Shown here piece after piece: positions 9,633-49,877 of a stretch of 64,000 bases of DNA. Both the position numbers and the translations under genes were made by a program. The stretch is from Elusimicrobiota bacterium. GTDB lineage: Bacteria > Elusimicrobiota > Elusimicrobia > Elusimicrobiales > UBA9959. The stretch lies in contig DMES01000037.1 in assembly GCA_003450815.1 (NCBI GenBank), positions 831 to 64,830 on the forward strand. Reading direction: 5' to 3'. How positions within the stretch are numbered: position 1 is the stretch's first letter; each line of letters starts with the position of its first letter. Below the pieces are notes generated by a model. That model was not told the origin of the DNA, did not search any database, and saw only the letters and a list, made by a program, of their open reading frames with translations.

Positions 9633-9703
9633 GCAAATTCCCCGGAGGGAATTTGACGCCTATACAGGTATTGAAGTATTGTTTGTCTCATCCTTACATA
9701 ACT

Positions 9704-9731
9704 TCCGAAAATTGTGGTTGCAATTTTCGGA
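9704..9731. repeat. palindromic hairpin TCCGAAAATTG-N6-CAATTTTCGGA (family P2, copy 1)
   Basis: Directly abuts the msbA stop. The same arms recur at 21998-22022. Confidence 0.8.
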
Positions 9732-26971: not shown

Positions 26972-26973
26972 AA

Positions 26974-29237: not shown

Positions 29238-29804
29238 ATGAAAAAAACGAAAGCTGCGCTGCTCTCCCTGTCGGTCGTCTTGTTCTCGTCGGTGTTTTCT
29301 TTTTCCCAGCAGGTAAATGAAATCTCATCTCCTTCTCTGGACAATATCGCGTCCGAGGCGGCCTCCGCTTTCAGTCTGAGCGCAGAGCTCAATGTCCGGG
29401 AAAAACTTTCCGCCGGGCTCCCTCTGCCGCTGCCGGAAAACTCAGACAGGGCCCAGCAGTCGATCACTCCACTCATTGAGGACCCTCTGCGCGTCAAGTG
29501 TATCCTGAAACTCATAAATGATATTTATGCCGGCGTGCACCTGCCGTTCAAAGAGGACGGGCAGATATTTTCGAATAAGGAAAAAATCCTGCCGCCCCAG
29601 GCCGCCGGCTATTATCGTGAATATACGCTTATAGTGCCCACTCAGTATCCCGGCACTGTCGTGGTGGGCGGCGTTACCTACCAGGTCCCTCCGTCTCTGT
29701 CAAAGCGCGGCCCTGAGCGGATGGTTATAGGCGGAGGAAAGACGATTTATTACAGCCCGGACCACTACAAGAGTTTTATAGAAATACAGGTGGTGAATAG
29801 TTGA
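29238..29804 (+). CDS. secreted guanyl-specific ribonuclease (barnase / RNase Sa family)
   Basis: 188 aa. Signal peptide MKKTKAALLSLSVVLFSSVFSFS. The C-terminal domain carries YYREYTL, KRGPERMV and YYSPDHYKSF (catalytic Glu/Arg/His contexts). Confidence 0.8.
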   Translation: MKKTKAALLSLSVVLFSSVFSFSQQVNEISSPSLDNIASEAASAFSLSAELNVREKLSAGLPLPLPENSDRAQQSITPLIEDPLRVKCILKLINDIYAGVHLPFKEDGQIFSNKEKILPPQAAGYYREYTLIVPTQYPGTVVVGGVTYQVPPSLSKRGPERMVIGGGKTIYYSPDHYKSFIEIQVVNS

Positions 29805-30220
29805 TGGAGCCGCCGGCCTTCGCATTAACACAGGAGGCTGTTGTAAAACTTGACGGTCCGGTTGCAAAAGCCGGGGAGGTGGAAAAAATTTTCACCGACC
29901 TCGGCTTTTTCTTTTGCCGGGTTGATTGCGCGGGCCTGGGCGGCAAAGGGGAGTTTATAACGGCCGTGGGAACGGGTTTCGGTTTTAGCGGCGTGGACGC
30001 GCACAATTGGGATTCGCTTGAGGATTCTCTGGGCTCGCTGCCATGTTTCAGAAAAGCCGCCGGTTACGCCGCGGTTCTTTCAAATTTTTCAGGTCTGCCG
30101 CCTGGGGAGCTGGCGCTTTTTGAAGAAGTGGTCCGCGATGCGGCGGCCGCGCTTTGGAGAAATTACTCCCTTCGGCTGAAAGTCGTTTTACTGAAACCCG
30201 AAAAATCCAGCCGGAAATAA
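29804..30220 (+). CDS. barstar-family ribonuclease inhibitor
   Basis: Its ATG overlaps the RNase stop (TGATG). HNWDSLEDSLGSL matches the barstar NxDALWDxL core. Its position is that of an immunity gene. Confidence 0.7.
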   Translation: MEPPAFALTQEAVVKLDGPVAKAGEVEKIFTDLGFFFCRVDCAGLGGKGEFITAVGTGFGFSGVDAHNWDSLEDSLGSLPCFRKAAGYAAVLSNFSGLPPGELALFEEVVRDAAAALWRNYSLRLKVVLLKPEKSSRK

Positions 30221-33296: not shown

Positions 33297-33785
33297 TTGA
33301 AAGAAAAAATATCAGTCAGCGTAAGTTTAAAAAGCTATAAGGCCGATACTATCCGCTACGCGGCTTATGCGGTGAGCGGGGGGGCCTATGTTTTGCTCGG
33401 GCCGGGAAAAAAAGGGGAAGTGGAGGCGGCTTTTGAACCCAAGCCGAATGCGTCCGCAAAATATCGCGCCGGCCTTCAGAAGCTTTTTGAGTCGGAGTTG
33501 AGGGACGAAAAAATGCGTTCTGAAATAGCTGATGCCAACAGGGAACTAAGGGAATTTATGGTTCTTAAAGCTCTTTCTGCCGCCGACGACGCGGGAACTC
33601 AGGCAGGCGATTATGCCGGGCTTACCCCCGCCCAGGAAAAGGAATTGGACGCGCTTATTGCCGAGGTTGAGCGCGAAATAAAAACCGAAACCGCCGGCAA
33701 AGAGCGTAAAGATCCGCTTGGCATAACCAAAACATGGGAAGAAAAACATGGCTCAGAACCTTTTAAAAATAAAAACAAAAAATAG
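33297..33785 (+). CDS. HxsD-like small protein with charged C-terminal extension
   Basis: TTG start with GAGGAGGA 9 nt upstream. The N-terminus ISVSVSLKSYKADTIRYAAYAVSGGAYVLL parallels 35196..35516. It overlaps the following HxsB-like gene by 38 nt. Confidence 0.55.
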   Translation: MKEKISVSVSLKSYKADTIRYAAYAVSGGAYVLLGPGKKGEVEAAFEPKPNASAKYRAGLQKLFESELRDEKMRSEIADANRELREFMVLKALSAADDAGTQAGDYAGLTPAQEKELDALIAEVEREIKTETAGKERKDPLGITKTWEEKHGSEPFKNKNKK

Positions 33786-35211
33786 TGTCGCGCAAACCAA
33801 TCCGCCGCATTTTTATTGGCGGGAAGTAGACGGGGCTTACCTCATAAGCAATGATTCCGGCTGCCATGCGTGGCTGGACGCGGCGGCTTTTAAGCGCTTT
33901 TCCGCCGGCACGCTCAGGGAAAAAGACAAAGCCTTTGAGGAGCTTTCTTCAAAAGGTTTTATCAGAGACAGGCTGGATTTCGCGGATTTGGCCGCAAAAT
34001 GGAAGAGCAAAAATTCCCACCTGTCCTGCGGGCCGGGGCTGCATATTTTTGTAATGACGCTGCGGTGTGACCATAAGTGCCTTTATTGCCAGTCAGGGGC
34101 CATAAGCCTGAGCGCCAAAGGCGCGGATATGAAATGGCCCGCGGCCAAAAAAAGCGTGGATTTCGCATTTCAGACCACCGCTCCCGGCCTGACTATTGAG
34201 TTTCAGGGCGGCGAGCCGCTGCTTAACTGGGCGGTCCTTAAAAAAACCGTTTCCTACGCCAGGAAAAAAGAAAAGCTTTCGGGTAAACGCCTTAATCTTG
34301 GCCTTGTTTCAAATTTCAGCCGGATGACCGAAGGGTATGCCCGGTTTCTGCTTGAAAACGAGGTTTCCCTCTGCACCTCGCTTGACGGCCCGGCTGACCT
34401 GCACAACAGAAACAGAATTTGCTCCGGCGGCAATGCCCACGTGTCGGTACGCAAATGGCTAAGGTATTTCACGCGCAGGAACACCGGGCAGGGAGCCGGG
34501 TACAGGATTTTCAAGCCCAGCGCTCTGCTTACGGTCACCAAGTTTTCGCTGGGCCGTGCGCCCGAGATAATTGATGAATATGCCGGGCTTGGGCTTGAGG
34601 ATGTCTTTATACGGCCGCTTTCGCCAATCGGTTACGCTAAAAACAGCTGGAGCGCCATAGGCTATACGGCCGCGGATTTTGTGGCTTTCTACAAAGAAAG
34701 TCTTGGATATATACTGAAACTGAACCGTAAGGGCGCCGTTATAAGGGAAAAAATGGCCGCCATGCTCCTTGAAAAGATAATCGGTTTCAGTGACCCCGGG
34801 TATCTGGACATGCGGTGTCCCTGCGGCGCCGCGGTGGGGCAGATAGCTTACAACTACAACGGAGATCTTTACACCTGCGATGAGGGCCGCATGGCGGCCT
34901 GGGAGGGGGACGATCTTTTTAAAATAGGCAATGTGTTCAGGGACAGTTATAAAAAAGCCGTTTCCTGCTCCACCGCCAGGTCATGCGTGGCCGCTTCCGA
35001 GCTGCATTTACAGCCGGCGTGCTCAAGGTGCGCTTACAGCCCTTATTGCGGTGTTTGCCCCGTGTATAACTACGAAGCGCAGGGCTCGTTGTGGGGCAAT
35101 ATGCCCGCAAACGAGAGATGCGCTTTCATGAAAGGCATATTCGGTATTCTGTTTTCCAAACTAAAAAATTCCAAAGACAGGGAGATACTGCAAAAATGGG
35201 TGAAAAAGTGA
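33748..35211 (+). CDS. radical SAM/SPASM peptide maturase, HxsB-like (copy 1)
   Basis: 487 aa. It has an ~100-aa N-terminal extension (..YLISNDSGCHAWLDAAAFKRF..), CDHKCLYC, EFQGGEPLLN, and a SPASM-type C-terminus CPCGAA..YNYNGDLYTCDEG..ACSRCAYSPYCGVCPVYN. Confidence 0.7.
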   Translation: MAQNLLKIKTKNSVAQTNPPHFYWREVDGAYLISNDSGCHAWLDAAAFKRFSAGTLREKDKAFEELSSKGFIRDRLDFADLAAKWKSKNSHLSCGPGLHIFVMTLRCDHKCLYCQSGAISLSAKGADMKWPAAKKSVDFAFQTTAPGLTIEFQGGEPLLNWAVLKKTVSYARKKEKLSGKRLNLGLVSNFSRMTEGYARFLLENEVSLCTSLDGPADLHNRNRICSGGNAHVSVRKWLRYFTRRNTGQGAGYRIFKPSALLTVTKFSLGRAPEIIDEYAGLGLEDVFIRPLSPIGYAKNSWSAIGYTAADFVAFYKESLGYILKLNRKGAVIREKMAAMLLEKIIGFSDPGYLDMRCPCGAAVGQIAYNYNGDLYTCDEGRMAAWEGDDLFKIGNVFRDSYKKAVSCSTARSCVAASELHLQPACSRCAYSPYCGVCPVYNYEAQGSLWGNMPANERCAFMKGIFGILFSKLKNSKDREILQKWVKK

Positions 35212-35516
35212 AAAGTCATTCGCGTAGAATTATGTTCTCTAAACAAATATACGCGGCCGAAGCGGTTAAACTTGCGGCTTATGTTTTTTCAGACAAAGCC
35301 GATATAAAATTAGCATCCTCCGCCGGCGGCGTCGAGGCTGAAGTGTCCTGGGAAGGGAAGGATTGCGCGGTCGCCGGAGAATTTGCGAACGAGGTTCTTA
35401 ACCAGCAATGCCGGCTTGATCTGGCCGTGAAAAATGGAAAGGTCGCAAACATGATAGTTACCAAGGCCTTGCTTTCCGCTTCCGGTGAAACAGTGAAAAA
35501 GAGGGGGAAACAGTGA
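35196..35516 (+). CDS. HxsD-like small protein (copy 2)
   Basis: About 106 aa. ..FSKQIYAAEAVKLAAYVFSDKADIKL.. resembles 33297..33785. It overlaps the upstream stop. The start is uncertain (35196, 35208 or 35232). Confidence 0.5.
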   Translation: MGEKVKSHSRRIMFSKQIYAAEAVKLAAYVFSDKADIKLASSAGGVEAEVSWEGKDCAVAGEFANEVLNQQCRLDLAVKNGKVANMIVTKALLSASGETVKKRGKQ

Positions 35517-36529
35517 AAAAGTGGACTGTTCTTGTTTTTATAGCGCTTTTGGGGCTTATACTTGGCCTGCGTTATCTGAGTAAAAAGAATGAGGCAAAAG
35601 TGGAACAGAACGCAGGCATGCAGCTGTCCGAACCGGTGGGGGTTGCTCTGCCGCAGGGGGTGAATACCTACTCTCCATCAGGCTCTGTGGCGTCTTCTCC
35701 CGCAGACTCTTCCGCCCTGGATGCGGCCGCTTCCAAAGGGGCTTGTGAGGGCGGCGCTCTTAACGACATACTGTCTTCGCACGGAGTGTCATGGGGTTAT
35801 TCTACAAAAGGCGTTGTTTTTGAACCGTCTGAAACTGAAAAGATCTATGAGGCTTTGGAAAATTATTTTTCCTGCGAGGCTGTCGCCATGGACGATATGG
35901 CTGCATGTGGGCCCTTAACGACCGATTCGGGTGATAAAGGCGATGTGCGTTTCAGTAATCCAAGATATAAATGTTCCGATAGCGCGAACAGGGTGCTGTT
36001 CAAGGCCTATATGGCGGGGATGCACGGCAATGCTTCGGCTTGTGCGTCATTTCTTGCAGGCGATAGTGTCAAGGACATCAAGTTGGATACTGTTGAGTTT
36101 TGCAATATAGCCGCAAAGGGGATGGAGAATATCTGTGTCGGCCTTGCTCCCTTTCTTCCGGCCTCAAAAAAAGCGGAATGCCTGACGGTTTTTCCAGCTA
36201 AAAAAACCGACTGTAGCGGCAAAGAATTCTGTCTGGATAATTACAAAATATATTCCGCCATCAAGGCCAGAAATCCGGGCCAGTGCCCTGAGAAGTACCG
36301 GCCCGCTTGTGAAGCTTTCTTCTCTAAGCGTCAGGCTTCCTGTTCAAATCTCATCACGAAGGCCAGTAAACTGTATTGCTCATCCCTTGCCGTGTTAAAA
36401 AAGAAACAAGCCAGCGGCATGTTTTTGTCTGAGCAAGAAAAGAAAGATGCCGAAATACGGAAAAAGGAAGAGGAAAGAATAATGCAGGAAGTAAATAAAA
36501 ATGCGAGGAAAATGCTGGGTAAGGAGTGA
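35513..36529 (+). CDS. membrane-anchored cysteine-rich protein, hypothetical
   Basis: GTG start overlaps the previous stop (GTGA) and has GAGGGGG upstream. It has one N-terminal TM helix. I count 14 Cys. The tail is Lys/Glu-rich. Confidence 0.65.
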   Translation: MKKWTVLVFIALLGLILGLRYLSKKNEAKVEQNAGMQLSEPVGVALPQGVNTYSPSGSVASSPADSSALDAAASKGACEGGALNDILSSHGVSWGYSTKGVVFEPSETEKIYEALENYFSCEAVAMDDMAACGPLTTDSGDKGDVRFSNPRYKCSDSANRVLFKAYMAGMHGNASACASFLAGDSVKDIKLDTVEFCNIAAKGMENICVGLAPFLPASKKAECLTVFPAKKTDCSGKEFCLDNYKIYSAIKARNPGQCPEKYRPACEAFFSKRQASCSNLITKASKLYCSSLAVLKKKQASGMFLSEQEKKDAEIRKKEEERIMQEVNKNARKMLGKE

Positions 36530-36536
36530 AAATTTT

Positions 36537-36869
36537 ATGGCTCAAAAAAAATCCAAGCTTAAAAAAAATATAAAAATGTTCCTTAACAGCGAAGAAGGTA
36601 AAATGCTGGATGCCGATATTGTTAAAACCGGCATCGCCTTGGGTATTATGGGCGCGGTCATGGCGGATCAGGCTGCGGCTCAGGCCGTTGTACATTCAAA
36701 CTATTTTTTTAATTCAGGCCCAGGCAGTGGTTCAGGCCATGCCAGCCACCAGAGCCACGGTTCGCACGGTTCGCACGGTTCGCACGGCTCACACGCCTCG
36801 CACGGTTCGCACGGTTCGCACGGTTCGCACGGTTCGCATGGCTCGCACTCGCGCGGCGGCTGGTGCTGA
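36537..36869 (+). CDS. His-Xaa-Ser repeat peptide (HxsA-like candidate precursor)
   Basis: AAGGAG is 9 nt upstream of ATG 36537. It is 110 aa: [21 protein letters not shown] / [29 protein letters not shown] / ..GPGSGSG / HAS HQS (HGS)4 HAS (HGS)5 HSR / GGWC. Confidence 0.8.
36738..36854 (+). repeat. 9-bp tandem repeat (CACGGTTCG and variants) encoding the His-Xaa-Ser triplets
   Basis: Read directly. There are 12 full 9-nt units plus a terminal CAC TCG CGC. Most units are identical at the nucleotide level. Confidence 0.95.
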
Positions 36870-36927
36870 TGCTTTTTTCCGGCGCTTTGCTCTTGTTTGA
36901 ATAGCTGATGGATGTTTAAAAAATCCG

Positions 36928-37056
36928 ATGGCGCAGACGTATGTGTGGCGCCATAACGAGTGGAAAGGCGGTCGTCTGGCGGCTCAGTACGCTGTCAAAA
37001 ACGGCTTTAAATTGGAAAGCCTTATATCTTACAATTATCCCCCCCGCATCTTTTGA
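36928..37056 (+). CDS. candidate 42-aa small ORF coupled to the following radical SAM gene
   Basis: Below the track's size cutoff. [42 protein letters not shown]. Its TGA abuts ATG 37057 (TGAATG), and 37057 has no SD of its own. The sORF has no SD either. Confidence 0.3.
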
Positions 37057-38157
37057 ATGAAAGTTCCAAAAGAAATACAGAAACTGAAAATAGCGCTCAC
37101 AACGGATTGCGTTCTTGCCTGCCGGCACTGTCGGGTGGACAAAAAGGCCGGACTCACTATAAGTTTAGACGACGCTGCCCGTGGAGTGGATATGCTGATT
37201 TCCTCTCCCGGGAAATTGAAACGTCTTGAACTTTATGGAGGTGAGCCGTTTCTTAAATTCCGGCTGTTTAAGGATATCGTGCAATACGCCGTAAGGCTTT
37301 CGGCGCGGTCCTGCAAAAAACTTTCAATTTCAGCGGCCTCAAACGGGCTTGTGCTGAATGAAGACCACCTGAAGTTTATCAGGGAAAACCGTGTTAATCT
37401 CTCCATAAGCATTTCCGGCTCGGAGAAGGCTCATGACCTGACACGCGTTTATCCCGGAGGCGGTGGAAGCTACGCCGACCTCAAAAAAAAGCTGGCGCTT
37501 ATCTTCTCCCGGCTTGAGGCTGAAAATATTGTGGCGCTTGAATGCGTACATCCGGCCTGTGCCGCGTCGCTTGGACCCGATTTGCGCCGCTTGGCCGACT
37601 TTGGTTTTAAAGTGATAAATATAGAATGTGTGCACGGGCCTGATTGGGGGCAAAGCTCTCTTAAGGCATTTGAAAGTGCCCTCCTTTCTTTCTCGGGCCG
37701 GCTTTTTACGGCAGTTAAAAAAGGCGTTTACATAGCGCCGGAGCCGTTTCTGGAATTTTTTCGGGTAAAAGGCGCGGCTGCCAGTCTTCAATGTCCTCTT
37801 TACAGAGATCTTGAGCTTTATCCCGACGGTGTTTTTTCTTTTTATCCGTTTGCCTTTATGGATTATTCTAAATGGCGAAAAGCGGTTAAACTAGGAACCT
37901 CCATTTCCGGACTTTGCAGGAGGTATTCGGCCTGTATACCTGGTGGAAAATTGTGCGCCGGCTGCGTCAGTAAATATTATGTGATCGGAGGACTTGCCGG
38001 CGGAGCGCGTGCCTATACCCTTAGAACGGCGGTGCTTAAAAAAGTGCTTCTGGATATAATGCGGCGTGCCCGCACAGAAAAGGCCTTTAACGGGTATGTG
38101 CGCTGGCTTGCAGGCATTGAGCAAAGAACCTATGTCGATTACCGTGGAATGAAGTGA
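37057..38157 (+). CDS. radical SAM protein with auxiliary-cluster (SPASM/twitch-like) C-terminus
   Basis: 366 aa. Has CVLACRHC, LYGGEPFL, and later Cys motifs CPLY..PDGVFSFYP and CRRYSACIPGGKLCAGC. Confidence 0.75.
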   Translation: MKVPKEIQKLKIALTTDCVLACRHCRVDKKAGLTISLDDAARGVDMLISSPGKLKRLELYGGEPFLKFRLFKDIVQYAVRLSARSCKKLSISAASNGLVLNEDHLKFIRENRVNLSISISGSEKAHDLTRVYPGGGGSYADLKKKLALIFSRLEAENIVALECVHPACAASLGPDLRRLADFGFKVINIECVHGPDWGQSSLKAFESALLSFSGRLFTAVKKGVYIAPEPFLEFFRVKGAAASLQCPLYRDLELYPDGVFSFYPFAFMDYSKWRKAVKLGTSISGLCRRYSACIPGGKLCAGCVSKYYVIGGLAGGARAYTLRTAVLKKVLLDIMRRARTEKAFNGYVRWLAGIEQRTYVDYRGMK

Positions 38158-38220
38158 ATGCCGCAAACGGCGGGTTGCAGGATGTCTCAAAAATAAAAAA
38201 AATCTTTTCCATTGAAATAT

Positions 38221-39624
38221 ATGAAAAAACCATTCATAGCATCGTACAATTTCAATTTTGTAAAAAAAGGCCGAAATATTTTAATTTCAAACGAGTTCGG
38301 CGGCTGGAGTCTTATAGGTGAGGCTGATTTTAAAAAATTGGCCGCCGGAAGGCTTTTACACGGCAGTTTAGCGCGTGAGCTTTCCGAAAAGGGGTTTGCG
38401 GCCAACCGCATGGATATGAAAGGCATGGCATTAGGGCTCTCCAAAACGCTGTTTGGTGGTTGGAAAGGGCCGCACGTACATATAATTTCGCTCACACAGC
38501 GTTGCAACCAAGCCTGCGCGTATTGCTGCGCCTCAGCGGGTCACGGCGGCGGCGGCATGAGCCGTAAGACCGCGGCCAAAACCCTTGATTTTATTTTTTC
38601 CATCCCCTGCGGGGACCTGGTTATGGAATTTCAGGGTGGAGAGCCGCTGCTTAATTTCAGCGTTCTGCGGTTCATGGTGAACTCGGCGCGGCGCCGCGCC
38701 GTTGCGCAAGGCCGAAGGGTTCATTTCTCAGTGGTCACAAACCTTACCGCCATGACCGCGGCAAAGCTGGAATTTTTGGTTTTAAACGGTGTTACAATCT
38801 GCACCTCCCTTGACGGGCCCGCTTCCCTGCACGACGCGAACCGCAGATTGGCCGGGCGCGGGACACACGCGCTGGTAACCGCCTGGCTTAAAAAAACAAG
38901 AGTTGCGGCAAAGAAATACCCAGGGTTTGAGCCGCCGAACGCAATCAGCACTATAACGCGCGCTTCGCTGGCGCAGCCCGAGCGTATAGTGGACGAGTTT
39001 ATCAGGCAGGGCATACGCCGCGTGCAACTTGGGCCGCTGGATCCGTTGGGACGCGCCGCCGGCGGCTGGGGCGCGCTGGGTTTTTCCGCCGCGGAATTTC
39101 TGGCTTTTTATTCACGGGCGCTGGATTACATGCTGGCGCTTAACCGCCGCGGTAATCCGGTTTATGAGAAAGGCGCGGTTATGTTCTTAAAGGAAATATT
39201 CGGATTCGGGCGGCCGCGCTACCAGAACCTGGATATTTTTTACCGTCTCGCTTACAATATAGACGGCGGAGTTTACGGGTCGGACGAGGCCCGGATGCTG
39301 GCCAACTCCGGAGACGACTCCTTCCGCCTTGGCAGTGTGCAGCGGGATAGTTTTAAGAGGCTTATAAAAAAACCGACTACCAGGCTGCTGCTGCTTTCGG
39401 CCTTTCCGCAGCTTACCCAGAGCGCCTGCGCCCGCTGTCCATATTCGGTCTGGTGTCGTGTAAGCCCTGCTCATAACTGGGCCGCGCAGGGTTCCTTCTG
39501 GGGAGATATGATGACCAGCCAGCGCTGTGCGATTTTTAAAGGGGTGTTTGACCTGCTTTTATCCAGGCTGAGTGATCGCGCCGCCGGGCCTGTCCTGCGG
39601 CATTGGTCGGAGTTTGAGCCTTAA
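38221..39624 (+). CDS. radical SAM/SPASM peptide maturase, HxsB-like (copy 2)
   Basis: MKKPFIASYNFNFVKKGRNILISNEFGGWSLIGEADFKKL.., CNQACAYC, EFQGGEPLLN, ..ACARCPYSVWC. The track's start at 38212 is TTG, so ATG 38221 is preferred. Confidence 0.7.
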   Translation: MKKPFIASYNFNFVKKGRNILISNEFGGWSLIGEADFKKLAAGRLLHGSLARELSEKGFAANRMDMKGMALGLSKTLFGGWKGPHVHIISLTQRCNQACAYCCASAGHGGGGMSRKTAAKTLDFIFSIPCGDLVMEFQGGEPLLNFSVLRFMVNSARRRAVAQGRRVHFSVVTNLTAMTAAKLEFLVLNGVTICTSLDGPASLHDANRRLAGRGTHALVTAWLKKTRVAAKKYPGFEPPNAISTITRASLAQPERIVDEFIRQGIRRVQLGPLDPLGRAAGGWGALGFSAAEFLAFYSRALDYMLALNRRGNPVYEKGAVMFLKEIFGFGRPRYQNLDIFYRLAYNIDGGVYGSDEARMLANSGDDSFRLGSVQRDSFKRLIKKPTTRLLLLSAFPQLTQSACARCPYSVWCRVSPAHNWAAQGSFWGDMMTSQRCAIFKGVFDLLLSRLSDRAAGPVLRHWSEFEP

Positions 39625-39636
39625 ATTCCCGTCACT

Positions 39637-40680
39637 ATGATAAAATCTAGGTATATGAAGGCAAAAGCTCTTTCCTACAGGCAGGCTGCGGCGCGTTTCG
39701 GCTGGCCGGCAGGGCGGATGAAAATTTGCGAACTAACGCTCGGCTACTCCTGTAACGCCCGCTGCGTGTTCTGCTACAGTTCGCCGGAGCTTGAAAACTG
39801 GAAAGAGCGTCCGTCCATGGATTTAAGGCGGGCGGGGGAGCATTTGCTGGCTTCCTATAAAAATGGCGCCCGCATGCTACAGATTATAGGCGGCGAGCCC
39901 ACCATAAACGAAGACCTTCCCCGCGTAATAAGTCTGGCCAAACGCACAGGTTACCTGGCGGTGCAGATAGTGTCAAATGGCCTTAAGCTTGCGGACGAGG
40001 ATTTTGTTAAAACGCTTGTAAAATCAGGCTTGAATACCGCCAATCTTTCTATCCACGGCCCTGACCGCGTCACCCACGACGCGGTAGTGGGGGTTGAGGG
40101 GGCTTTTGAAAGCACTCTTAAAGCGGCGCGCAATTTAATAGATGCCGGGGTTTACATCAACACCGGCACAGCCGTCACAGGCATTAATTACCGTAAAATT
40201 CCGGCCCTGGCCGCTTTTGTTCTGCGTGAGCTGGGAGTGGATTCCTGCCACATTATAGCCGCGCATTACCTTGGAGCGGCCTTCAAAAGGCGCAGGGCCC
40301 TGCGTGTTACTTACACTGAACAGATGCCGTATATTAAGAAGGCTGTGGCGGCCTTCCGCTTGGCGTATGTGAGGCCGGCTTTCGCTTTCCTAAGCAATTA
40401 TCTGCCCTGTGTGCTGCCCGGCTACGAGGCCCTGATGGGCGACTGGAAGTATCCTGAGGCTGACGACGACCTGTATCTGCCGGAAGCCAGTCACGAAGGA
40501 CGGATGTACACGATGATAACCGAAACTCTGCGCATGAAGTCTCCTTACTGCAAGCGGTGTGTTTATTGTGGCGTCTGCGCCGGTTTTGAAAAAACATATT
40601 TTGAAATGTTTGGCGGCGGGGAATTTGTTCCGCTTCTTGAGAAACCGGATGTTTACCCACTGAAGCCGGTGTGCGTATGA
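39637..40680 (+). CDS. radical SAM protein, compact CX2CX5C family
   Basis: 347 aa. Has CNARCVFC, IIGGEPT, LPCVLPGYEALM, and the C-terminal CKRCVYCGVCAGFEKTYFEMFGGGEFVP. Confidence 0.8.
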   Translation: MIKSRYMKAKALSYRQAAARFGWPAGRMKICELTLGYSCNARCVFCYSSPELENWKERPSMDLRRAGEHLLASYKNGARMLQIIGGEPTINEDLPRVISLAKRTGYLAVQIVSNGLKLADEDFVKTLVKSGLNTANLSIHGPDRVTHDAVVGVEGAFESTLKAARNLIDAGVYINTGTAVTGINYRKIPALAAFVLRELGVDSCHIIAAHYLGAAFKRRRALRVTYTEQMPYIKKAVAAFRLAYVRPAFAFLSNYLPCVLPGYEALMGDWKYPEADDDLYLPEASHEGRMYTMITETLRMKSPYCKRCVYCGVCAGFEKTYFEMFGGGEFVPLLEKPDVYPLKPVCV

Positions 40681-40736
40681 GTTGTACTAGGGTGAAATTT
40701 CTTCTTAATTTTTACCGGTCAGGCGTGATCTGAAGT

Positions 40737-41582
40737 ATGAAAATGCAGGTGGGGATAGGCTCTTTCAGGGAATTGGATTACTTTCTGGCCGCGGGCGCCG
40801 GGGAGTTCTACTGCGGCCTTGATAAAATACCAAGCCATGTTGAGGGCGCGTGTAATTTCGGGAGTTTGGACGATATCCTGACGGCCGCAAGGCTGGTCCA
40901 TGCCGCAGGCGGAAAAATGTTTTTTGCCGCCAACGAGGTTCATGCTTCTCTGCTGGAAGAGACCGGGTGCGTTATAAGAGAACTGGCGAACGGCGGCATA
41001 GACGGCGTGATAATAAAAGATCTAGCCCTGCTGGACCTGCTTAAGCGCCGCGGCATTAAGACCGCTTATATTCTCAGCACTCTTTCATGCTGCATGAACG
41101 CCGCCACGCTGGCCGTTTACCGCGGATACGGGGTTAAGCGGCTCGCTCTGCCCGAGCAGCTTAACCCGGCCGAAACCCGCGAACTGGTGTGTAATTCCTG
41201 GGGTATAGTCTCCGAGGTCTTTCTGAAAGCTCGGGAATGCTGCAGGAATTTCAACGGCCTCTGTTTCCTGGACTGCCACGGAAAACAATCCAACACCTGC
41301 GGGAAGAGCTTCCGCCGTGAAGGCGGCGGTGTTTTTCGGATGCCGGGCTTTTCCCCGGAGGAACATATGGCCCAGCTGCATGACTATTACCATATGGGCG
41401 TGGGAGTGCTGAAAGTGGGGCGCTCTCCCAGACCCGAAACCTCGCGGCTGGTTTTTAAGGAGGCGCTGCTGCTTCTGGATCTATTGAAATCAGGTTTGGG
41501 CCGTAAAGCCTTTACAGGTGAAGCCTTGCGCGTACATACTGTCTTTGACAAGGCTTATCGTCACCTTATAGAGAGAGTCTGA
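40737..41582 (+). CDS. peptidase-U32-family protein
   Basis: 281 aa. Has AGAGEFYCG, GIDGVIIKDLALL, RLALPEQLNPAETREL, and the Cys cluster ECCRNFNGLCFLDCHG..TCG. It is paralogous to 26974..27930. Confidence 0.7.
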   Translation: MKMQVGIGSFRELDYFLAAGAGEFYCGLDKIPSHVEGACNFGSLDDILTAARLVHAAGGKMFFAANEVHASLLEETGCVIRELANGGIDGVIIKDLALLDLLKRRGIKTAYILSTLSCCMNAATLAVYRGYGVKRLALPEQLNPAETRELVCNSWGIVSEVFLKARECCRNFNGLCFLDCHGKQSNTCGKSFRREGGGVFRMPGFSPEEHMAQLHDYYHMGVGVLKVGRSPRPETSRLVFKEALLLLDLLKSGLGRKAFTGEALRVHTVFDKAYRHLIERV

Positions 41583-42278
41583 ATGGAATTAGCCGTGCTG
41601 CTTACTCCCGAAGAGGCCCGCGCCGCGGGCCCCGGCTTGTTTAAAAGGTATTCCAGGGCTTATGTCGGAAGCGGGTTCTGCCAGAACCTCCTGCCGGAAG
41701 CGCGGGATATAGGCATGCTTCATTCAAAAGGCGCTAAAACCATTACACTGGCAACTCCGCTGTTTACCGGCGCCGGCCTGAAAAAATTCGAAAAAATCCT
41801 GAAAGCGGTGCTGGAAACGGAAAAAAGGATTGAGGTTTCGGTAAATGATTTGGGTTTGCTGGCCTTGCTGCGACGGCGCTACCGCGCGCGGGTGACGCCG
41901 CTGCTCGGCAGGCCGGTCTCGCATGATTATCTCCGCATGGAGCCGTCTTTTTTGAAACGGTTTTTGCGGTATTACGGCGTGAAATACCTTGAAAGCGACG
42001 AAAATTCCATGGTGCGCAATCTTCCGGCTTCGTCAAAACTGGCAGTGTCTTTTCATTACCCGCTTGCCTGCCTAGCCATGAGCCGTTTTTGCCCGCACGA
42101 GGGCCGTATGGACGACAGTTGCGCTCGGTCCTGCGCGGTAGGCCCTGTAAAACTGGAAGACGCCTGCGGAGAACAGCTGATTTTAAAGAACGGCGCGTAT
42201 TTTGCAGGGAATACGCCCTGCCGTCACAAGGCTGTAAAGCGTCTGGTTTACGCTCCGGGCGGTTCACTTAAGCTTTAG
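41583..42278 (+). CDS. U32-like partner protein
   Basis: 231 aa. Its ATG directly abuts the upstream stop. YVGSGFCQNLLPE, VSVNDLGLLALL and the Cys cluster SRFCPHEG..DSCARSC are paralogous to 26150..26971. Confidence 0.6.
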   Translation: MELAVLLTPEEARAAGPGLFKRYSRAYVGSGFCQNLLPEARDIGMLHSKGAKTITLATPLFTGAGLKKFEKILKAVLETEKRIEVSVNDLGLLALLRRRYRARVTPLLGRPVSHDYLRMEPSFLKRFLRYYGVKYLESDENSMVRNLPASSKLAVSFHYPLACLAMSRFCPHEGRMDDSCARSCAVGPVKLEDACGEQLILKNGAYFAGNTPCRHKAVKRLVYAPGGSLKL

Positions 42279-42314
42279 AAGCCTGTCCGGCATAAAGAAA
42301 AGAATTATTAAAAA

Positions 42315-43220
42315 ATGAAAAGAGTTGATATAAAAATAGGCTTCAACTGCAATAACCGCTGCGATTTCTGCGCGCAGGGGGACAAGCGTTACAAGAGCAA
42401 ACAAAAATCCCTGACAGAAATAAAACAAATTCTTCGGACCGCCCGCGCCTCCGGAGTGAGCGGGGTGGTTTTTACCGGCGGCGAACCCACGCTGCACCCC
42501 GGCCTTATAGATGCCGTAAAGGCCGCCCGCGCCATGGGGTATGTCAGCGTGCAGGTGCAGACCAACGGGCGGCATTTTGCCTATTACGATTACTGCGCGG
42601 GGCTTAAATCCGCCGGGGTCACTGAAATGGGGCCCTCGCTTCACGGCTCCAGCCCTGAAATTCATGAGGGCCTGACCAACGCCCCGGGAAGTTTTAGCGA
42701 GGTGGTTAAAGGCATACTCAATTGCAAGCGACTCGGGATGTATGTGTTGACCAATTCCGTGATTACAAAAAAAAATTACAAAGATTTGCCCGCGCTTGCT
42801 AAATTGCTCTTATATCTTAAGGTCGATCAGTATCAGCTGGCTTTTATTCATATAATAGGCACGGCTCTTGAAAACCGTGCCGGGATAGTGCCCCTAAAAA
42901 GCGACGCTATGCCGTTTATCCGCCGCGCCCTTGACGCTGGTATAAAAAAAGGCGTGCCCTGCTACACCGAAGCCATACCCTTTTGCCTGATGAAAGGGTA
43001 TGAGCGGTGCGTGGCCGAACGGATAATTCCTGAAGGGCCTGTAGCCGATGCCGGCATTTACGTTAAAAGTTACGGCGATTGGCGCCGCAACCAGGGCAAG
43101 CTCAAGCGAAAAGAGTGCCGGAGCTGCCGCTGGTTTGCGATCTGCGAGGGGCCCTGGCGGGAATATCCTGGGTTATACGGCTGGGATGAATTTGTGCCGG
43201 TCAAGAATAAAGCCGGTTAA
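42315..43220 (+). CDS. radical SAM protein, compact CX2CX5C family
   Basis: 301 aa. Has CNNRCDFC, FTGGEPTL, IPFCLMKGYERC, and CRSCRWFAICEGPWREYPGLYGWDEFVP. Confidence 0.8.
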   Translation: MKRVDIKIGFNCNNRCDFCAQGDKRYKSKQKSLTEIKQILRTARASGVSGVVFTGGEPTLHPGLIDAVKAARAMGYVSVQVQTNGRHFAYYDYCAGLKSAGVTEMGPSLHGSSPEIHEGLTNAPGSFSEVVKGILNCKRLGMYVLTNSVITKKNYKDLPALAKLLLYLKVDQYQLAFIHIIGTALENRAGIVPLKSDAMPFIRRALDAGIKKGVPCYTEAIPFCLMKGYERCVAERIIPEGPVADAGIYVKSYGDWRRNQGKLKRKECRSCRWFAICEGPWREYPGLYGWDEFVPVKNKAG

Positions 43221-43314
43221 AGCGATCCCGTTTAGCTGGATATTGAAAATGAATATAATGAACTATACCGGACTTATACCGAAGGCGGCTTGGCACGGGT
43301 TTTCTGCATAATCA

Positions 43315-44250
43315 ATGTCTGAAACCGGAATTTACGAATGTTATCTTACATACAGGTGCAATCAGCGCTGCACATTTTGCTTTGTGTCGGAGGCGGAGCG
43401 CGCGGTCGGAGCGCCAATCGGTTTCAAAAGCATAATAGGCAAAATTTACAAAATGAGAAAGGCCGGCTGCGATGACCTGCGGCTACTGGGGGGGGAACCG
43501 GCCATGTATCCGGATATAACCGGAGTATGCGCGGCTGCCTCAAAGATCGGTTATAAGAGCATAACTATTTTCACCAATGGAACCTGTTTTGCCGGCAATG
43601 AGCTCGCCAGTCAACTGAAGAAATACGGGCTTGACAGGGCGAATGTAAGTATTCATTCGCACAAGCCGGAAGTCCACGACAAGATAACCGGGGTGAAGGG
43701 TTCTTTTTACAGGATGCTTTCCGGTCTGGACAGCCTCCGACGCGCCGGAGTGAGGATTAGCTTTATCTGTGTGGTGAATTTCCTCAATGCCACAGAACTC
43801 AACAGGACGACGGCTTTTTTTCTGAACAAGGGCATTTCCGGATTCACTTTCTTTTTCACAAAATATCAGGGACGGATGGTTGAAGAGCCTACCAGGTCTG
43901 ATAAACTTTCCATCAGCATGTCCGAAGCGGCGGCCGTGGTGAAAAAAGCTCTCGGAGTATTCAGGCGCCATAAAATGCCATTGCCCGGGCTGGAACATTT
44001 TCTTCCGTGCGTTCTTCCAGGCTATGTACGGCTGATGACCGATTATTTTCCGGCAGAGGCTGGAAAACCGGACACTGGCTATCTGGTGCATCCGGATGGT
44101 ATTACGGCCCGAGTGTATGCCACAGCATATAAAGGCCGCAGATGGCTTGAAACCTGTTCCCGCTGCAGATTTCGGCGGGGCTGCTGCGGGATAGATCCCG
44201 GATATCTGGCTAAATTCGGTTCGCGGGAGTTTAAGCCGGTAAAAAAATGA
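43315..44250 (+). CDS. radical SAM protein, compact CX2CX5C family
   Basis: 311 aa. Has CNQRCTFC, LLGGEPAM, LPCVLPGYVRLM, and CSRCRFRRGCCGIDPGYLAKFGSREFKP. Confidence 0.8.
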   Translation: MSETGIYECYLTYRCNQRCTFCFVSEAERAVGAPIGFKSIIGKIYKMRKAGCDDLRLLGGEPAMYPDITGVCAAASKIGYKSITIFTNGTCFAGNELASQLKKYGLDRANVSIHSHKPEVHDKITGVKGSFYRMLSGLDSLRRAGVRISFICVVNFLNATELNRTTAFFLNKGISGFTFFFTKYQGRMVEEPTRSDKLSISMSEAAAVVKKALGVFRRHKMPLPGLEHFLPCVLPGYVRLMTDYFPAEAGKPDTGYLVHPDGITARVYATAYKGRRWLETCSRCRFRRGCCGIDPGYLAKFGSREFKPVKK

Positions 44251-45671
44251 AAAAAACCATGTCGCTTATGCCTTTTGGTTTTGCGCCGGTTACCGGAGGG
44301 GTGTTGGTTTCCAACGACTTCGGCGGCTGGCTGGTTCTGGACGGAAGGGAGTTCAGGAGCCTGAAAGACGGAAGCTTTGCGCGCAAGAAAGGGCTTTGCG
44401 CCAAACTTGCACGGCGCGGTTTTATAAAAGAGCGGCTTGATTTTGAAAGCCTCGGGCAGGATATGGGCGGACTTCACAGGCACAGTTTCGGCGGCCCGAG
44501 CCTGCACATACTTGTGGTAACGCTGAAGTGCAACCACGCCTGCGTTTATTGCAGGGCGGTAAAAGCCGGCGGGTTTGAAAAAGCCGTGATGAGTCTTGAG
44601 ACCGCCAAAAAAAGCATAGACATGGCCTTTTCCTCACCGAATAAAAATATCGTTATTGAGTTCCAGGGCGGCGAGGCGCTCATAAACTGGCCGGTAGTCA
44701 GGAACGCCATTCTTTACGCCCGGAAGAAAAACACGGCATACGACAAAAACCTTGAAATTTCGGTTGTAACGAATCTTAGCCTGATGGACGAGGAAAAATT
44801 TTCTTTCCTTACCGGTCACGGCGCCGGGGTATGCGCCTCTCTTGACGGCCCCGCTTTTTTGCACGACGCCAACCGGCGCTACGCTGGAGGCTCTTCGCAT
44901 GAAAAGACCTTGTATTGGCTGAAAAAAGCGCTTTCCTTGAAACATGGCGGGGAAAAAGACTCGCTCCCTTCGGCTCTAATGACGGCCACAAAGCTTTCAC
45001 TGAAGTATCCGGAAGAAATTGTTGAAACTTACCGCAAGATCGGGCTGGGCGGTATATTTCTGCGTCCGCTATCGCCGATAGGCTTCGCGCGGTCTGTTTG
45101 GGGCGATATCGGCTATAAGTCTGAGGAATTCGGTTCTTTTTACCGTTCGGCGCTTGAACATATTCTCAGGCTGAACCGGCGCGGCGAGCGTTTTGTGGAG
45201 CGCAATGCCGCCATAGTGGCCCGGAAAGCGCTTAAAAAAGAAGACCCCAACTTTCTGGATCTGCGTTCTCCGTGCGGAGGAGCCATTGGACAGCTAGCCT
45301 ATAACTGGGATGGCGGGGTTTACACCTGCGACGAAGGCAGGATGGCAGGTTTCGGCCGGGACGATTTTTTCAGGCTCGGCAGCGTTTACAAAAACTCTTA
45401 TCAGGAAATAATCAGCGCTCCCGCGGCCAGAGTTTGCGCTTTGGCTTCCTGTCTAGAAAACCAGAGCGCCTGCTCGCGCTGCGCGTGGAAGCCTTTTTGC
45501 GGAGTTTGTCCCGTGTATAATTATGAAACCCAGGGGTCTCCGTGGGGAGATATAGTCACCGGGGACTGGTGTAAAATACAAAAAGGCATTTTCTCGGCGG
45601 TTTTTGACGCCTTGTCAAAACCCTCCAGCCGTAAGATTATAGAGGGCTGGCTGGACACAACGGATAGGTAG
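44247..45671 (+). CDS. radical SAM/SPASM peptide maturase, HxsB-like (copy 3)
   Basis: 474 aa. ATGA overlap with the upstream gene. Has ..VLVSNDFGGWLVLDGREFRSL.., CNHACVYC, EFQGGEALIN, and CGGAIGQLAYNWDGGVYTCDEG..ACSRCAWKPFCGVCPVYN. Confidence 0.7.
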   Translation: MKKTMSLMPFGFAPVTGGVLVSNDFGGWLVLDGREFRSLKDGSFARKKGLCAKLARRGFIKERLDFESLGQDMGGLHRHSFGGPSLHILVVTLKCNHACVYCRAVKAGGFEKAVMSLETAKKSIDMAFSSPNKNIVIEFQGGEALINWPVVRNAILYARKKNTAYDKNLEISVVTNLSLMDEEKFSFLTGHGAGVCASLDGPAFLHDANRRYAGGSSHEKTLYWLKKALSLKHGGEKDSLPSALMTATKLSLKYPEEIVETYRKIGLGGIFLRPLSPIGFARSVWGDIGYKSEEFGSFYRSALEHILRLNRRGERFVERNAAIVARKALKKEDPNFLDLRSPCGGAIGQLAYNWDGGVYTCDEGRMAGFGRDDFFRLGSVYKNSYQEIISAPAARVCALASCLENQSACSRCAWKPFCGVCPVYNYETQGSPWGDIVTGDWCKIQKGIFSAVFDALSKPSSRKIIEGWLDTTDR

Positions 45672-45803
45672 ATAGGCTGTAGGCAGTTAGCCTGTGGGAG
45701 GAAATTTTTCGCGGTCATGCGAAGTGTAGAGCGTTCTGGGCGCCTTGGTCGGTTAATGCGTAACGACTAACAGCCTTCAGTCTATAGCGTAAACAACCTA
45801 TTT

Positions 45804-46691
45804 ATGCCTGATATATCTTTTTGGAACAAATGCAACAGCAAGTGCGTGATGTGTACAAACATGGCTTCTTTTTCCTCGCAGGACAGCTCGCAGTACGGCT
45901 TGAAGAGGCAGATACGGAAAATGGAAAGCTATCTGAAGGGGGAGAGCGTATATTTCAAGAACGCAGACAAATCCGATTTTTTAAGCCTTACCGGCGGCGA
46001 GCCCACCTTACACCCCGATTTTTTCCAGCTGCTCGCCTATTTCAGGCGGAGGCTTGCCGGGACGCCCATCAGGCTTCTGACAAACGGAAGGACGCTTGCT
46101 GATACCGGGTTTACCGCTAAATTGCTGAAAACAGCCGGTCCTCCTTTCTGTTTTATAATTCCTCTGCATGGCTCCGGCCCCTCTCTGCACGATAAGGTCG
46201 CCGGAGTGAAAGGCTGTTTTATGCAGACCATGAAAGGGCTGGAGAACCTGTTTTCCATGGCCGGCGGCAGGGATATAGAAATACGCGTTGTTCTTCATAA
46301 GTTGAACGCCGTGGCTTTGCCTGACATCCTGAAACTTCTGCTTAAAAAATTCCCCCGCACTTCCCGCTACCGCGTGGTAGTTATACACTATGAGATAGAG
46401 GGGGAGTCGGAAAGAAACCACCCCCTGCTGGCGTTACGGTTTAAAAATTCTGTCCGGGCCGTGCGCGCCTGCGTGCGCCTTCTGCCAAAATTCGCGCATC
46501 TTGAGCTTTATCATTTTCCACTTTGTGTTCTTCCGCCGTCTTTGCGTGCCCTGGCCCGCGTCACCCTGCCCCGCGCGGACAGAATATATCCGCCCTCAAA
46601 ATGCGGCCGCTGCGCGCTCAAAGCAAAATGCCTGGGGCTTATGCGTGCATACCACAAAAAATTCGGGGCCTCGGAGCTGAAAACTATATGA
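45804..46691 (+). CDS. radical SAM protein, compact CX2CX5C family
   Basis: 295 aa. Has CNSKCVMC, LTGGEPTL, FPLCVLPPSL, and CGRCALKAKCLGLMRAYHKKFGASEL. Confidence 0.8.
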   Translation: MPDISFWNKCNSKCVMCTNMASFSSQDSSQYGLKRQIRKMESYLKGESVYFKNADKSDFLSLTGGEPTLHPDFFQLLAYFRRRLAGTPIRLLTNGRTLADTGFTAKLLKTAGPPFCFIIPLHGSGPSLHDKVAGVKGCFMQTMKGLENLFSMAGGRDIEIRVVLHKLNAVALPDILKLLLKKFPRTSRYRVVVIHYEIEGESERNHPLLALRFKNSVRAVRACVRLLPKFAHLELYHFPLCVLPPSLRALARVTLPRADRIYPPSKCGRCALKAKCLGLMRAYHKKFGASELKTI

Positions 46692-47839
46692 AACCGGTCT
46701 CTCTTTCCTTTCTTGCGGTTTTGGTTCTTTGGGCGGTTTCCGTGGTAAGCGCCGATATCGCCACTAATAAAATAACCAACCGGAAAATTATTCTGGGCGC
46801 GAAAATACTTTTGGGGGCGTGCATTGCCCAGGCTTTCGTTACGTATCTCGGTTACAAAGGGGATACCCCCGTCTTTTTGCTGTGGGAGTTTTATCCAATG
46901 CTGGCGCGTCACGCGCTGTGGTCGGCGCTGGCCGGCATTATCTTGTGGTACGCTGAAATATGGCCTGCAGGAGACGCCAAATTTTTTATTCTTGTTTCGG
47001 CTTCATTGCCTGTTGTTAATTCGCAGATCCGGAATTTTCCGAATTATCTTTTTCTCTCCCTGCTTGTGAATATTTTCGTTCTCGCCTCCATTTTCGCGGT
47101 GTGCGGGTTTATTTCTTCAGGTATGCGCTCCGCTTCGCCCGGGGATTTTTTAAGCGGACTTTGGACGGATATGCGAAAAAGGTTGTCATCTCTCGGATCT
47201 GGAAAAAGCCGTCTGACAGCCCTGGCATACCTGTTTAATATGATTTTTGTCTTTCTCATGCAGCAGATATTCGCGTTTGAGGCCGCCGGGGCGTTAGGCA
47301 GGCTGTTTTCACGCGTGGAAGTCCTTTATTTCTTTATTTTTATACTTTGGGGTAAGATAGGCGGAGTTTTCAAAGGCCGGCGCCTGTTTTACCTTACAAC
47401 CTGCTGTTACCTTGTGTATTTTTTTGCCGGTTATTTCTTTTTCTATGACCGCCTGGCGCTCATGATAATCACGGCCATAGTCAATGTGCTTAAATTCAGC
47501 CTGCTTTTGTTTTTCGGGCGTTTCATGCTTGAATTCCTGATGGAAAAAAAGGATCTGATCTATGTGGGCGCTGAGGAGCTCTCGCCGGGCATGGTGCTTT
47601 CTTCAAAAGAGAGCGCAAGGCTTAAGGCGAACCCCGTTTTTGAGGGCGCCTTTGATGATTCTTTCAGAGACGGGCTTGTGGCGGAACAGGTGGAACTCCT
47701 GAGAAGCTGGCTTAAAAAGCTGCCGCTTGAGAATGCCAAAATGGAAATGGTCAAAGGCCGGCCTTTCGCTCTTTGGATATCCGCGGGCGCCGCCATTTCG
47801 CTGCTGTTTGACAGAAATCTGGTGCATCTTCTGAAATGA
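46688..47839 (+). CDS. polytopic membrane protein with A24 (prepilin/TadV-type) aspartyl peptidase motifs
   Basis: ATGA overlap at 46688; the track's upstream extension runs inside the previous gene. SADIATNKITN matches D-x5-IPN, WPAGDAKFF matches GGGDAKL, and KGRPFALWISAGAAISL matches the PFGP-type motif. Extra helices and a ~90-aa soluble insert are present. Confidence 0.55.
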   Translation: MKPVSLSFLAVLVLWAVSVVSADIATNKITNRKIILGAKILLGACIAQAFVTYLGYKGDTPVFLLWEFYPMLARHALWSALAGIILWYAEIWPAGDAKFFILVSASLPVVNSQIRNFPNYLFLSLLVNIFVLASIFAVCGFISSGMRSASPGDFLSGLWTDMRKRLSSLGSGKSRLTALAYLFNMIFVFLMQQIFAFEAAGALGRLFSRVEVLYFFIFILWGKIGGVFKGRRLFYLTTCCYLVYFFAGYFFFYDRLALMIITAIVNVLKFSLLLFFGRFMLEFLMEKKDLIYVGAEELSPGMVLSSKESARLKANPVFEGAFDDSFRDGLVAEQVELLRSWLKKLPLENAKMEMVKGRPFALWISAGAAISLLFDRNLVHLLK

Positions 47840-49839: not shown

Positions 49840-49877
49840 AGCTGATTTTTTGGGACTTTTTAAGTTAAAATCAAAAT

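Follow-up and report, generated by a model that had tools for sequence, protein, structure and literature searches.

A His-Xaa-Ser repeat precursor of the HxsA4 family in an Elusimicrobiota genome: a candidate docking motif ahead of a predicted Sec signal, and a linked A24-like membrane protein

The canonical HXS system, HxsD-HxsB-HxsC-HxsA, is an antiphage system of Gammaproteobacteria (Li et al., Nat Commun 2026, PMC13128918). Its substrate HxsA carries a signal peptide and is periplasmic, N-terminal processing of HxsA needs HxsB, HxsC and HxsD, and a +8 Da modification dependent on radical S-adenosylmethionine (SAM) chemistry is present in its His-Xaa-Ser (HxS) repeat; maturation is thought to be cytoplasmic and function periplasmic (PMC13128918). 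We analysed a HxS repeat peptide encoded at 36537-36869 (+) in a 64,000-nucleotide stretch of DNA from the metagenome-assembled genome of an Elusimicrobiota bacterium (GenBank assembly GCA_003450815.1, contig DMES01000037.1, positions 831 to 64,830 of the forward strand; this whole stretch is called the window below). The initial annotation, made from the letters of the DNA, had compared the N-terminus of this peptide to a class-III (Flp-type) prepilin leader and had suggested that its modified His-rich tail is displayed on a membrane-anchored or pilin-like stem. On balance, we favour another reading, in which the peptide is an HxsA4 precursor, rather than a Flp or type IV pilin, with an N-terminus in two parts: a docking motif followed by a cleavable Sec export signal. 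The parts of the gene on which the argument turns are the following.

36522..36527, + strand: Shine-Dalgarno sequence AAGGAG, 9 nt 5' of the ATG (direct sequence reading)
36537..36869, + strand: hxsA4 precursor gene, 110 aa and stop codon (translation; NCBIfam NF038313; NCBI name of relatives)
36537..36599, + strand: aa 1-21, Lys-rich N-terminus and family-wide motif ending at Gly21, proposed docking motif (conservation)
36600..36626, + strand: aa 22-30, KMLDADIVK, charged 9-residue spacer, predicted n-region of the export signal (family counts)
36627..36665, + strand: aa 31-43 (T31-A43), predicted h-region, 13 uncharged residues with G-xxx-G-xx-G spacing (family counts)
36666..36686, + strand: aa 44-50, DQAAAQA, predicted c-region with a polar, helix-breaking start and A-x-A; predicted signal peptidase I cut after A48 or A50 (alignment)
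36687..36737, + strand: aa 51-67, start of the predicted mature peptide, with a conserved H-x-N-x-F (alignment of 14 relatives)
36738..36845, + strand: aa 68-103, twelve HxS repeats (six-frame scan; mostly a 9-bp tandem array)
36846..36866, + strand: aa 104-110, HSRGGWC, conserved C-terminus with the only Cys of the peptide (alignment of relatives)

Translation of 36537-36869 gives exactly the 110-aa peptide that had been quoted, with 12 HxS repeats followed by HSRGGWC, and the start is placed at 36537 because Met14 is replaced by Leu in several relatives. By profile match, the peptide is a member of the already catalogued HxsA4 family: model NF038313 (HxsA4, NCBIfam) gives 57.3 bits where the cutoff is 55 (E = 2.3e-15), and since aa 7-104 are aligned (to profile positions 4-90 of 93) the N-terminus belongs to this curated family too. 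A score above the cutoff also means that the open reading frame (ORF) did not arise by chance. Close relatives number 14, and the name given to relatives by NCBI is 'His-Xaa-Ser repeat protein HxsA4 [Elusimicrobiota]'; the exact 110-aa sequence was absent from the protein collection searched, although a Joint Genome Institute (JGI) contig has a called gene of 110 aa at this position. The model of canonical HxsA (TIGR03979) did not match the peptide, and Pfam gave nothing past the leader and the repeats except a weak low-complexity collagen match. The neighbours expected for HxsA4 are present, namely HxsB (TIGR03978, 468 bits, cutoff 370) and two HxsD-like genes directly upstream (TIGR03976, 38.5 and 44.8 bits). 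No HxsC-like protein of the window reaches the cutoff of 500 for the partner HxsC4 (NF038332; best scores 152 and 141 bits), and by this measure the HxsC-like proteins of the window are divergent. When a profile restricted to the leader was compared with 1.84 billion proteins (cluster representatives), 67 representatives matched; a genome scan with the same profile led to 55 loci, mainly from Elusimicrobia, the others being from Azambacteria, Saccharibacteria, Schekmanbacteria, Bdellovibrio and Deltaproteobacteria. In every locus inspected in detail, HxsB-, HxsC- or HxsD-type radical-SAM genes lie near the leader.

The anatomy of the N-terminus was derived from 75 leader-bearing members (73 for some positions) and from the closer set of 14 relatives; positions with a plus sign are counted from Gly21. 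Within the motif, K10, N11, I12, F15, L16, S18, E19, E20 and G21 are invariant across the 14 relatives, and a longer stretch of 23 residues is essentially invariant among them. The motif is retained in the 75 members, which come from several phyla, and the Gly itself is near-invariant among them (Ala in a few). Between the window and a related locus of 64% GC (L001), the segment F15-G32 is 100% identical, while HxsB is 61% identical and protein X, encoded directly 5' of the peptide gene, 34%. The Gly is followed by a spacer of nine residues in 73 of the 75 members, with the pattern K-h-x-[K/D]-[K/A]-[D/N]-h-h-K: Lys is found at +1 in 70/75 and at +9 in 64/75, and is common at +4/+5. On average, a member carries 4.2 charges within +1..+10 (75 members), and the net charge ahead of the h-region is +4 in the peptide. 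The h-region measures 12-14 residues in 60/75 members (median 13); the hydrophobic fraction is at least 0.86 at +10..+21 and drops to 0.36-0.58 at +22 and +23, where D, G and P are frequent. The G-xxx-G-xx-G of the hydrophobic core corresponds to positions +11, +15 and +18, the first of which is G or A in 71/73 members. The c-region reads DQAAAQA and then VV, i.e. a helix breaker, small residues at -3/-1 and no Pro at +1 relative to the cut. All 14 close relatives keep A/S-x-A, with variable adjacent residues; in the wider family A-x-A occurs in 46/73 members against 30.5 expected from within-segment shuffles, and small-x-small occurs in 68/75. Ala peaks at +25 and +27 from the Gly, and the commonest -1 Ala is at +27, which is A48 in the peptide. 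Further on, H53, N55 and F57 are invariant among the 14 relatives. As read from these alignments, the anatomy of aa 22-50 is the n-h-c layout of a Sec signal peptide cut by signal peptidase I, placed behind an extra conserved motif. Signal peptidase I cleavage at an AQA motif had been mentioned in the initial annotation as an alternative to the prepilin leader; the motif is there, and it fits the n-h-c data of the family. Other kinds of leader were considered and rejected: a lipoprotein leader (the lipobox Cys is missing), a Tat leader (the twin-Arg is missing) and a double-glycine leader of C39 transporters (no GG/GA at the proper spacing, and no C39 peptidase domain found on the one ABC transporter of the window).

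We propose that the motif at aa ~10-22 docks the precursor on cytoplasmic HxsB/HxsD and on the many HxsC-like radical SAM enzymes, a role suggested by its extreme conservation together with the HxsB/C/D-type genes of the inspected loci. The HxS repeats, and perhaps the C-terminal Cys too, would be modified before export. Residues 22-50 would then act as a Sec signal, with a Lys-bearing n-region, a 13-residue h-region, a polar helix breaker and A-x-A, and the modified peptide would cross the inner membrane of a diderm host. The window also encodes LpxA/B/C/D/I (lipid A), Skp and BamA, and the organism is therefore diderm and has a periplasm. Signal peptidase I would most likely cut after A48 or A50, to give a periplasmic peptide of ~60-62 residues beginning near VVHSNYFF, so that the His-rich tail, once modified, probably ends up free in the periplasm. 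An additional processing step at the invariant Gly may be contributed by a membrane protein encoded further downstream.

46688..47839, + strand: divergent peptidase-A24-like polytopic membrane protein, 383 aa (motifs and PF01478 matches of relatives)

At either end, the gene of this protein shares 4 bp with the adjoining radical SAM gene. The protein had been described at the outset as A24-like, and its relatives largely bear this out: PF01478 matches 9 of 21 family members at E ≤ 1 (best E = 4.4e-6), the window copy itself having no Pfam match at E ≤ 10, and two Asp-containing motifs, D23 (D-x-A-T-x-K-I-P-N) and D96 (W-P-A-G-D-A-K-F, of the G-x-G-D-x-K type), which we take to be the A24 active site, are invariant in the 21 sequences. 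Two relatives carry a precomputed PF01478 match, one of them marked weak, and NCBI names some relatives 'prepilin peptidase'; the window protein had no match among solved structures. A conserved C-terminal soluble domain with the motif F-[DE]-D-x-F-[KR]-D-G, followed by a last helix, was also observed (46688-47839; loci L063, L064, L067 and L148). The family has more than 130 members, every named one from Elusimicrobia, and homologues from the Candidate Phyla Radiation (CPR) retain both Asp motifs. In at least 10 Elusimicrobia assemblies besides the window, the A24-like gene and HxsA4 share a contig and are 3-20 kb apart. Within ±10 kb it is found at 9 of the 55 leader loci, including one from Azambacteria and two from Saccharibacteria; in one of the latter (L064), a single gene, coding for a Cys-rich, signal-anchored protein, separates protease and peptide. 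In the reverse search, 6 of 22 well-flanked metagenome protease loci carry the peptide upstream, and in L148, which has the order HxsD, HxsB, peptide, protease and three HxsC4-like genes, the two are adjacent. Loci L002-L005 had at first suggested, with flanks of ±10 kb, that protease and peptide occur independently; this was partly a flank artefact, since the L002 contig has an HxsA4 gene (L018) farther out, ~13.5 kb downstream of the protease gene, and in two other genomes the distances are ~13.5 kb and ~20 kb. The A24-like gene was not seen in the DNA available at L001, L011, L013, L014, L066 and L068-L070. Two candidates were tested as A24-like homologues, the 547-aa L001 protein and the product of the final gene in L006, and neither is homologous; the unannotated proteins of L011, L013 and L014 are soluble and unrelated. 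The A24-like family is a genuine companion of HxsA-type peptides across phyla.

If the N-terminus were a class-III, Flp-like prepilin leader, the A24-like peptidase would cut it after Gly21 and the His-rich tail would sit on a membrane-bound or pilus-like stem. Several features agree with this: F-L-x-S-E-E-G resembles the Flp F-L-x-D-E-S-G, an A24-like protease belongs to the system, and the G-xxx-G-xx-G spacing could serve helix packing. However, the Flp/Fap model PF04964 matched neither the full peptide nor aa 1-61 nor aa 14-50 at E ≤ 10, and none of the 14 relatives. When the HxsA4 leader was compared by hhalign with 24 aligned pilins, taken from a set of genuine Flp pilins that all carry PF04964 and that includes Caulobacter PilA (100% identity to the query), the probability was 0.41% (P = 0.15), and the alignment took in 13 pre-Gly columns only, leader to KFVTRFLKDESGA, ending at the Gly. 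A likeness to the Flp leader exists, but it is not significant and extends no further than the pre-Gly motif. The canonical Glu at +5 had been noted as absent, which is correct, the peptide having Ala there; among the 75 members +5 is Lys in 41, Ala in 15 and Glu/Asp in 5, whereas all 24 Flp sequences have E-Y at +5/+6. The hydrophobic stretch of ~20 residues that had been described after the Gly exists as a hydrophobic segment but not at that length, for the 9-residue spacer with its four charges comes first and only then the 13 uncharged residues. With 12-13 hydrophobic residues, the core has about half the pilin length, its mean hydropathy is well under that of a pilin helix (best 19-residue Kyte-Doolittle window 1.38, against 2.55 for Caulobacter PilA), and a c-region of the signal peptidase I type comes next. 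When the large ORFs of all 64 kb were scanned with Pfam and NCBIfam, no tad/cpa/pil gene (TadA/B/C, i.e. ATPase and platform proteins, and secretin) was found, nor did any pilus assembly gene turn up in those related loci for which a gene table or a homology map was read. Because the N-terminal features of a mature pilin are missing, charges follow the Gly and the core is short and less hydrophobic, a pilin-like or stably anchored stem is unlikely, and we regard the Flp-like prepilin as very improbable. The remark that such an arrangement would be unusual for a radical-SAM substrate has little force, since canonical HxsA has a signal peptide and is periplasmic (PMC13128918); the claim of a pilin-like radical SAM substrate falls because HxsA4 is a catalogued family and exported His-Xaa-Ser proteins are experimentally known. 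At the other extreme, the N-terminal 50 residues might form a purely cytoplasmic leader, a recognition helix for the maturases whose hydrophobic stretch lies in an enzyme groove, with no export at all. Many radical-SAM-modified peptides have long cytoplasmic leaders, and A34, G36 and G39 are conserved more than is usual for signal peptides. But the later half of the hydrophobic block, like the c-region, is free to vary as long as signal-peptide rules are kept, protein X and the A24-like neighbour are membrane or extracytoplasmic proteins, and canonical HxsA is exported; we give this reading hardly any credence.

The A24-like protease could itself be the dedicated processor of the precursor, cutting at the cytoplasmic face after Gly21 (EEG/K) or Gly32 (K-T-G/I). 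The docking leader would then be removed once the hydrophobic segment is inserted, with signal peptidase I acting later or not at all, and a peptide-maturation pathway would have taken over prepilin-type chemistry with no pilin being made. The retention of both catalytic motifs, the PF01478 matches of the relatives, the 4-bp overlaps with radical SAM genes and the strong linkage to the peptide all speak for this, as do the near-invariant Gly21, the G or A at +11 and the fact that the sole hhalign alignment to Flp runs from leader to leader and stops at the Gly. Against it, the linkage could stem from a shared large radical SAM cluster rather than from an enzyme-substrate pairing, and several HxsA-type loci show no A24-like gene in the available DNA. 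Moreover, Gly21 is separated from the membrane segment by a charged spacer, unlike in any known A24 substrate, +1 is Lys and +5 is not Glu, the similarity between the leader and Flp is not significant, and the window copy of the protease is below every Pfam threshold and without a structural match. We therefore consider a dedicated processor of this kind doubtful. In its general form, the proposal that a divergent A24 (GxGD) protease processes HxsA4 leaders at FLxSEEG/K or K-x-G/h from Elusimicrobia to Saccharibacteria and Azambacteria is a tentative one, slightly less doubtful in our eyes; as the family is linked to HxsA-type peptides, cleavage at the invariant Gly is possible.

The docking motif followed by a Sec signal, which we prefer, also has points to answer. 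The signal-peptide call rests on rule-based anatomy, and the n-region is unusually long (~30 residues) and has an acidic patch. The conserved G-xxx-G-xx-G in the h-region exceeds what a generic signal peptide needs and hints at a specific membrane partner, and 27 of 73 members are without A-x-A. A conserved A24-like protease stands without an assigned substrate beside a leader whose invariant Gly is superficially like that of Flp FLxDExG. In canonical HXS, N-terminal processing is more than plain signal-peptide removal (PMC13128918). Finally, the docking role of the motif is one that we infer.

The repeats and the C-terminus vary among members of the family. The array in the window consists of 10.3 copies of the 9-bp unit CACGGTTCG at 36756-36848 (+), coding for HGS repeats (Tandem Repeats Finder, TRF), and the number of HxS repeats ranges among relatives from about 3 to more than 25, a spread which suggests slippage-driven length variation. 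Close relatives keep (A/S)RGGWC at the C-terminus. Among the 75 members, GGW(C) is found in 23, most of the remaining C-termini being W, Y or F; the terminal residue of HxsA-type peptides is C in 20/75, W in 13/75 and Y in 11/75, and the aromatic residue sits right after the last repeat. The other features of the region that concern the peptide are as follows.

33297..35516, + strand: maturase module of hxsD, hxsB and a further hxsD-like gene, 5' of X and the peptide gene (NCBIfam)
35513..36529, + strand: protein X, 338 aa, with an N-terminal signal-anchor and a Cys-rich extracytoplasmic domain (translation)
36854..36878, + strand: weak terminator-like hairpin and T-run across the stop codon of the peptide gene (consensus scan only)
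37057..38157, + strand: radical SAM protein encoded directly 3' of the peptide gene (NCBIfam and Pfam)

The hairpin has a 5-bp stem followed by ATGCTTTTTT. It is possibly an attenuator after the precursor gene, or it may be a partial terminator that lifts the precursor transcript above those of the enzymes.

The peptide gene belongs to a run on the + strand (33297-52033) with 12 radical SAM genes (33.7-52.0 kb), in the order hxsD, hxsB, second hxsD-like gene, X, peptide and then the radical SAM gene with thioether-maturase matches, beyond which come more HxsB- and HxsC-like genes, U32-family proteins and the A24-like membrane protein. The order hxsD-hxsB-hxsD-like is shared with L001, L006-L009 and L116, and the gene order of the cluster is also kept in L116, a metagenome locus. 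HxsB-type radical SAM genes are three in the run (33748, 38212 and 44247), HxsC-/HxsC4-like genes at least five and HxsD-like genes two, and this large run apparently serves just one precursor of 110 aa; outside it there are two more radical SAM genes, at 28034-28954 (-) and 5984-6859 (-). The protein of 37057-38157 matches best the N-terminal radical SAM core (aa 7-224) of the thioether-forming PapB, SCIFF and QhpD families, with NCBIfam scores well under the family cutoffs (PapB 107 bits, SCIFF 83 bits), and Pfam gave Radical_SAM only, with no match to SPASM. Its gene adjoins that of the peptide in L001, L006 and L007 too, and the protein might act on Cys110. Protein X has about 20 Cys and no Pfam or NCBIfam match. 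Homologues with 30-35% identity are encoded directly 5' of the peptide gene in L001 (6566-7594) and L006-L010; in L002/3 a homologue is present (L002 7076-8176), but the peptide is not beside it. In the Saccharibacteria locus L064, a signal-anchored Cys-rich protein, weakly similar to X, occupies the same position (8993-9952). The peptide has a single Cys, at its very C-terminus, and X could be its partner outside the cytoplasm.

Some other genes inside or around the cluster recur elsewhere. Two pairs of a U32-family protein and an unassigned ~230-275-aa partner are found inside or flanking the cluster, at 40737-42278 (+) and 26150-27930 (-), and such pairs recur in L002, L004 and L011; weak similarity of the U32 proteins to UbiU/TrhP suggests hydroxylase-type rather than protease chemistry. 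Just 5' of the hxs cluster, 29238-30220 (+) encodes a barnase-like ribonuclease and a barstar-like inhibitor, a pair that is syntenic in L002, L006, L007, L009 and L071. On the 3' side of the radical SAM run, the segment 51922-59024 (+) codes for a class-V aminotransferase (cysteine-desulfurase-like), an M20 peptidase and an OTCase-like protein, and also for a poly-gamma-glutamate hydrolase-like protein, an amino-acid-kinase-like protein and a PALP enzyme; the aminotransferase, M20 and OTCase genes recur 3' of the A24-like gene in L002, L004 and L071. The only obvious mobile-element gene of the window, an rve-family integrase/transposase at 2994-3785 (-), is far from the cluster.

These results provide a testable anatomy for HxsA3/HxsA4-type leaders (candidate docking motif, fixed 9-residue spacer, 12-13-residue core and A-x-A) and a previously undescribed association, across phyla, between HxsA-type peptides and two other proteins, an aspartyl protease of the A24-like kind and a Cys-rich protein with a signal-anchor. 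Should the protease process the peptide, it would be the first known enzyme of the prepilin-peptidase type to serve a ribosomal peptide-modification pathway. It would then also give a handle on the processing and export of His-Xaa-Ser effectors, left open by the 2026 HXS study (PMC13128918).

The closest described relative of the peptide is HxsA4 (NF038313; related to HxsA3, NF038309), with which it shares leader, repeats and C-terminus in the profile match and which has the same HxsD/HxsB flanks; compared with the HxsA4 model, the cluster of the window is very large, with its 12 radical SAM genes in one run, and the HxsC4 cutoff is not reached. With canonical HXS it has in common a His-Xaa-Ser substrate, an N-terminal export signal (predicted here) and HxsB/HxsC/HxsD-type partners. 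Canonical HxsA, however, is a protein of ~214 aa in which a 22-residue signal peptide, 5 repeats and a peptidoglycan-binding domain are found (PMC13128918), whereas the window peptide, 110 aa long with 12 repeats, lacks that domain, has a conserved pre-signal motif of 30 residues and ends in GGWC. Likewise, canonical HXS consists of four genes, without an A24-like protein or X, and the window cluster is an expanded one, with 12 radical SAM genes, X, U32-like proteins and the A24-like protein; PADLOC 2023 gave generic radical SAM-viperin matches only for the window. Flp/Fap prepilins (PF04964) also have a short F-L-x-(D/S)-E-x-G, an invariant Gly upstream of a hydrophobic segment and an A24-like protease in the system, but where they continue with A-T-A-I-E-Y after the Gly the peptide has its charged 9-residue spacer, and its hydrophobic segment has half the length and precedes a predicted signal peptidase I site. 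The protease differs from TadV/CpaA in its length (383 aa), its extra C-terminal domain and its marginal similarity to PF01478. A parallel for the proposed order of events is offered by Sec-exported sulfatases (modified by anSME) and QhpC (modified by QhpD), leader-bearing substrates that are modified by a cytoplasmic radical SAM/SPASM enzyme before translocation; these substrates are enzymes or subunits rather than short repeat peptides, and they have neither FLxSEEGK nor an A24-like partner. The searchable literature yielded no account of how the leader is built or of an A24-like companion of HxsA4. The peptide itself is thus of a known kind, and the new part is its association with the protease.

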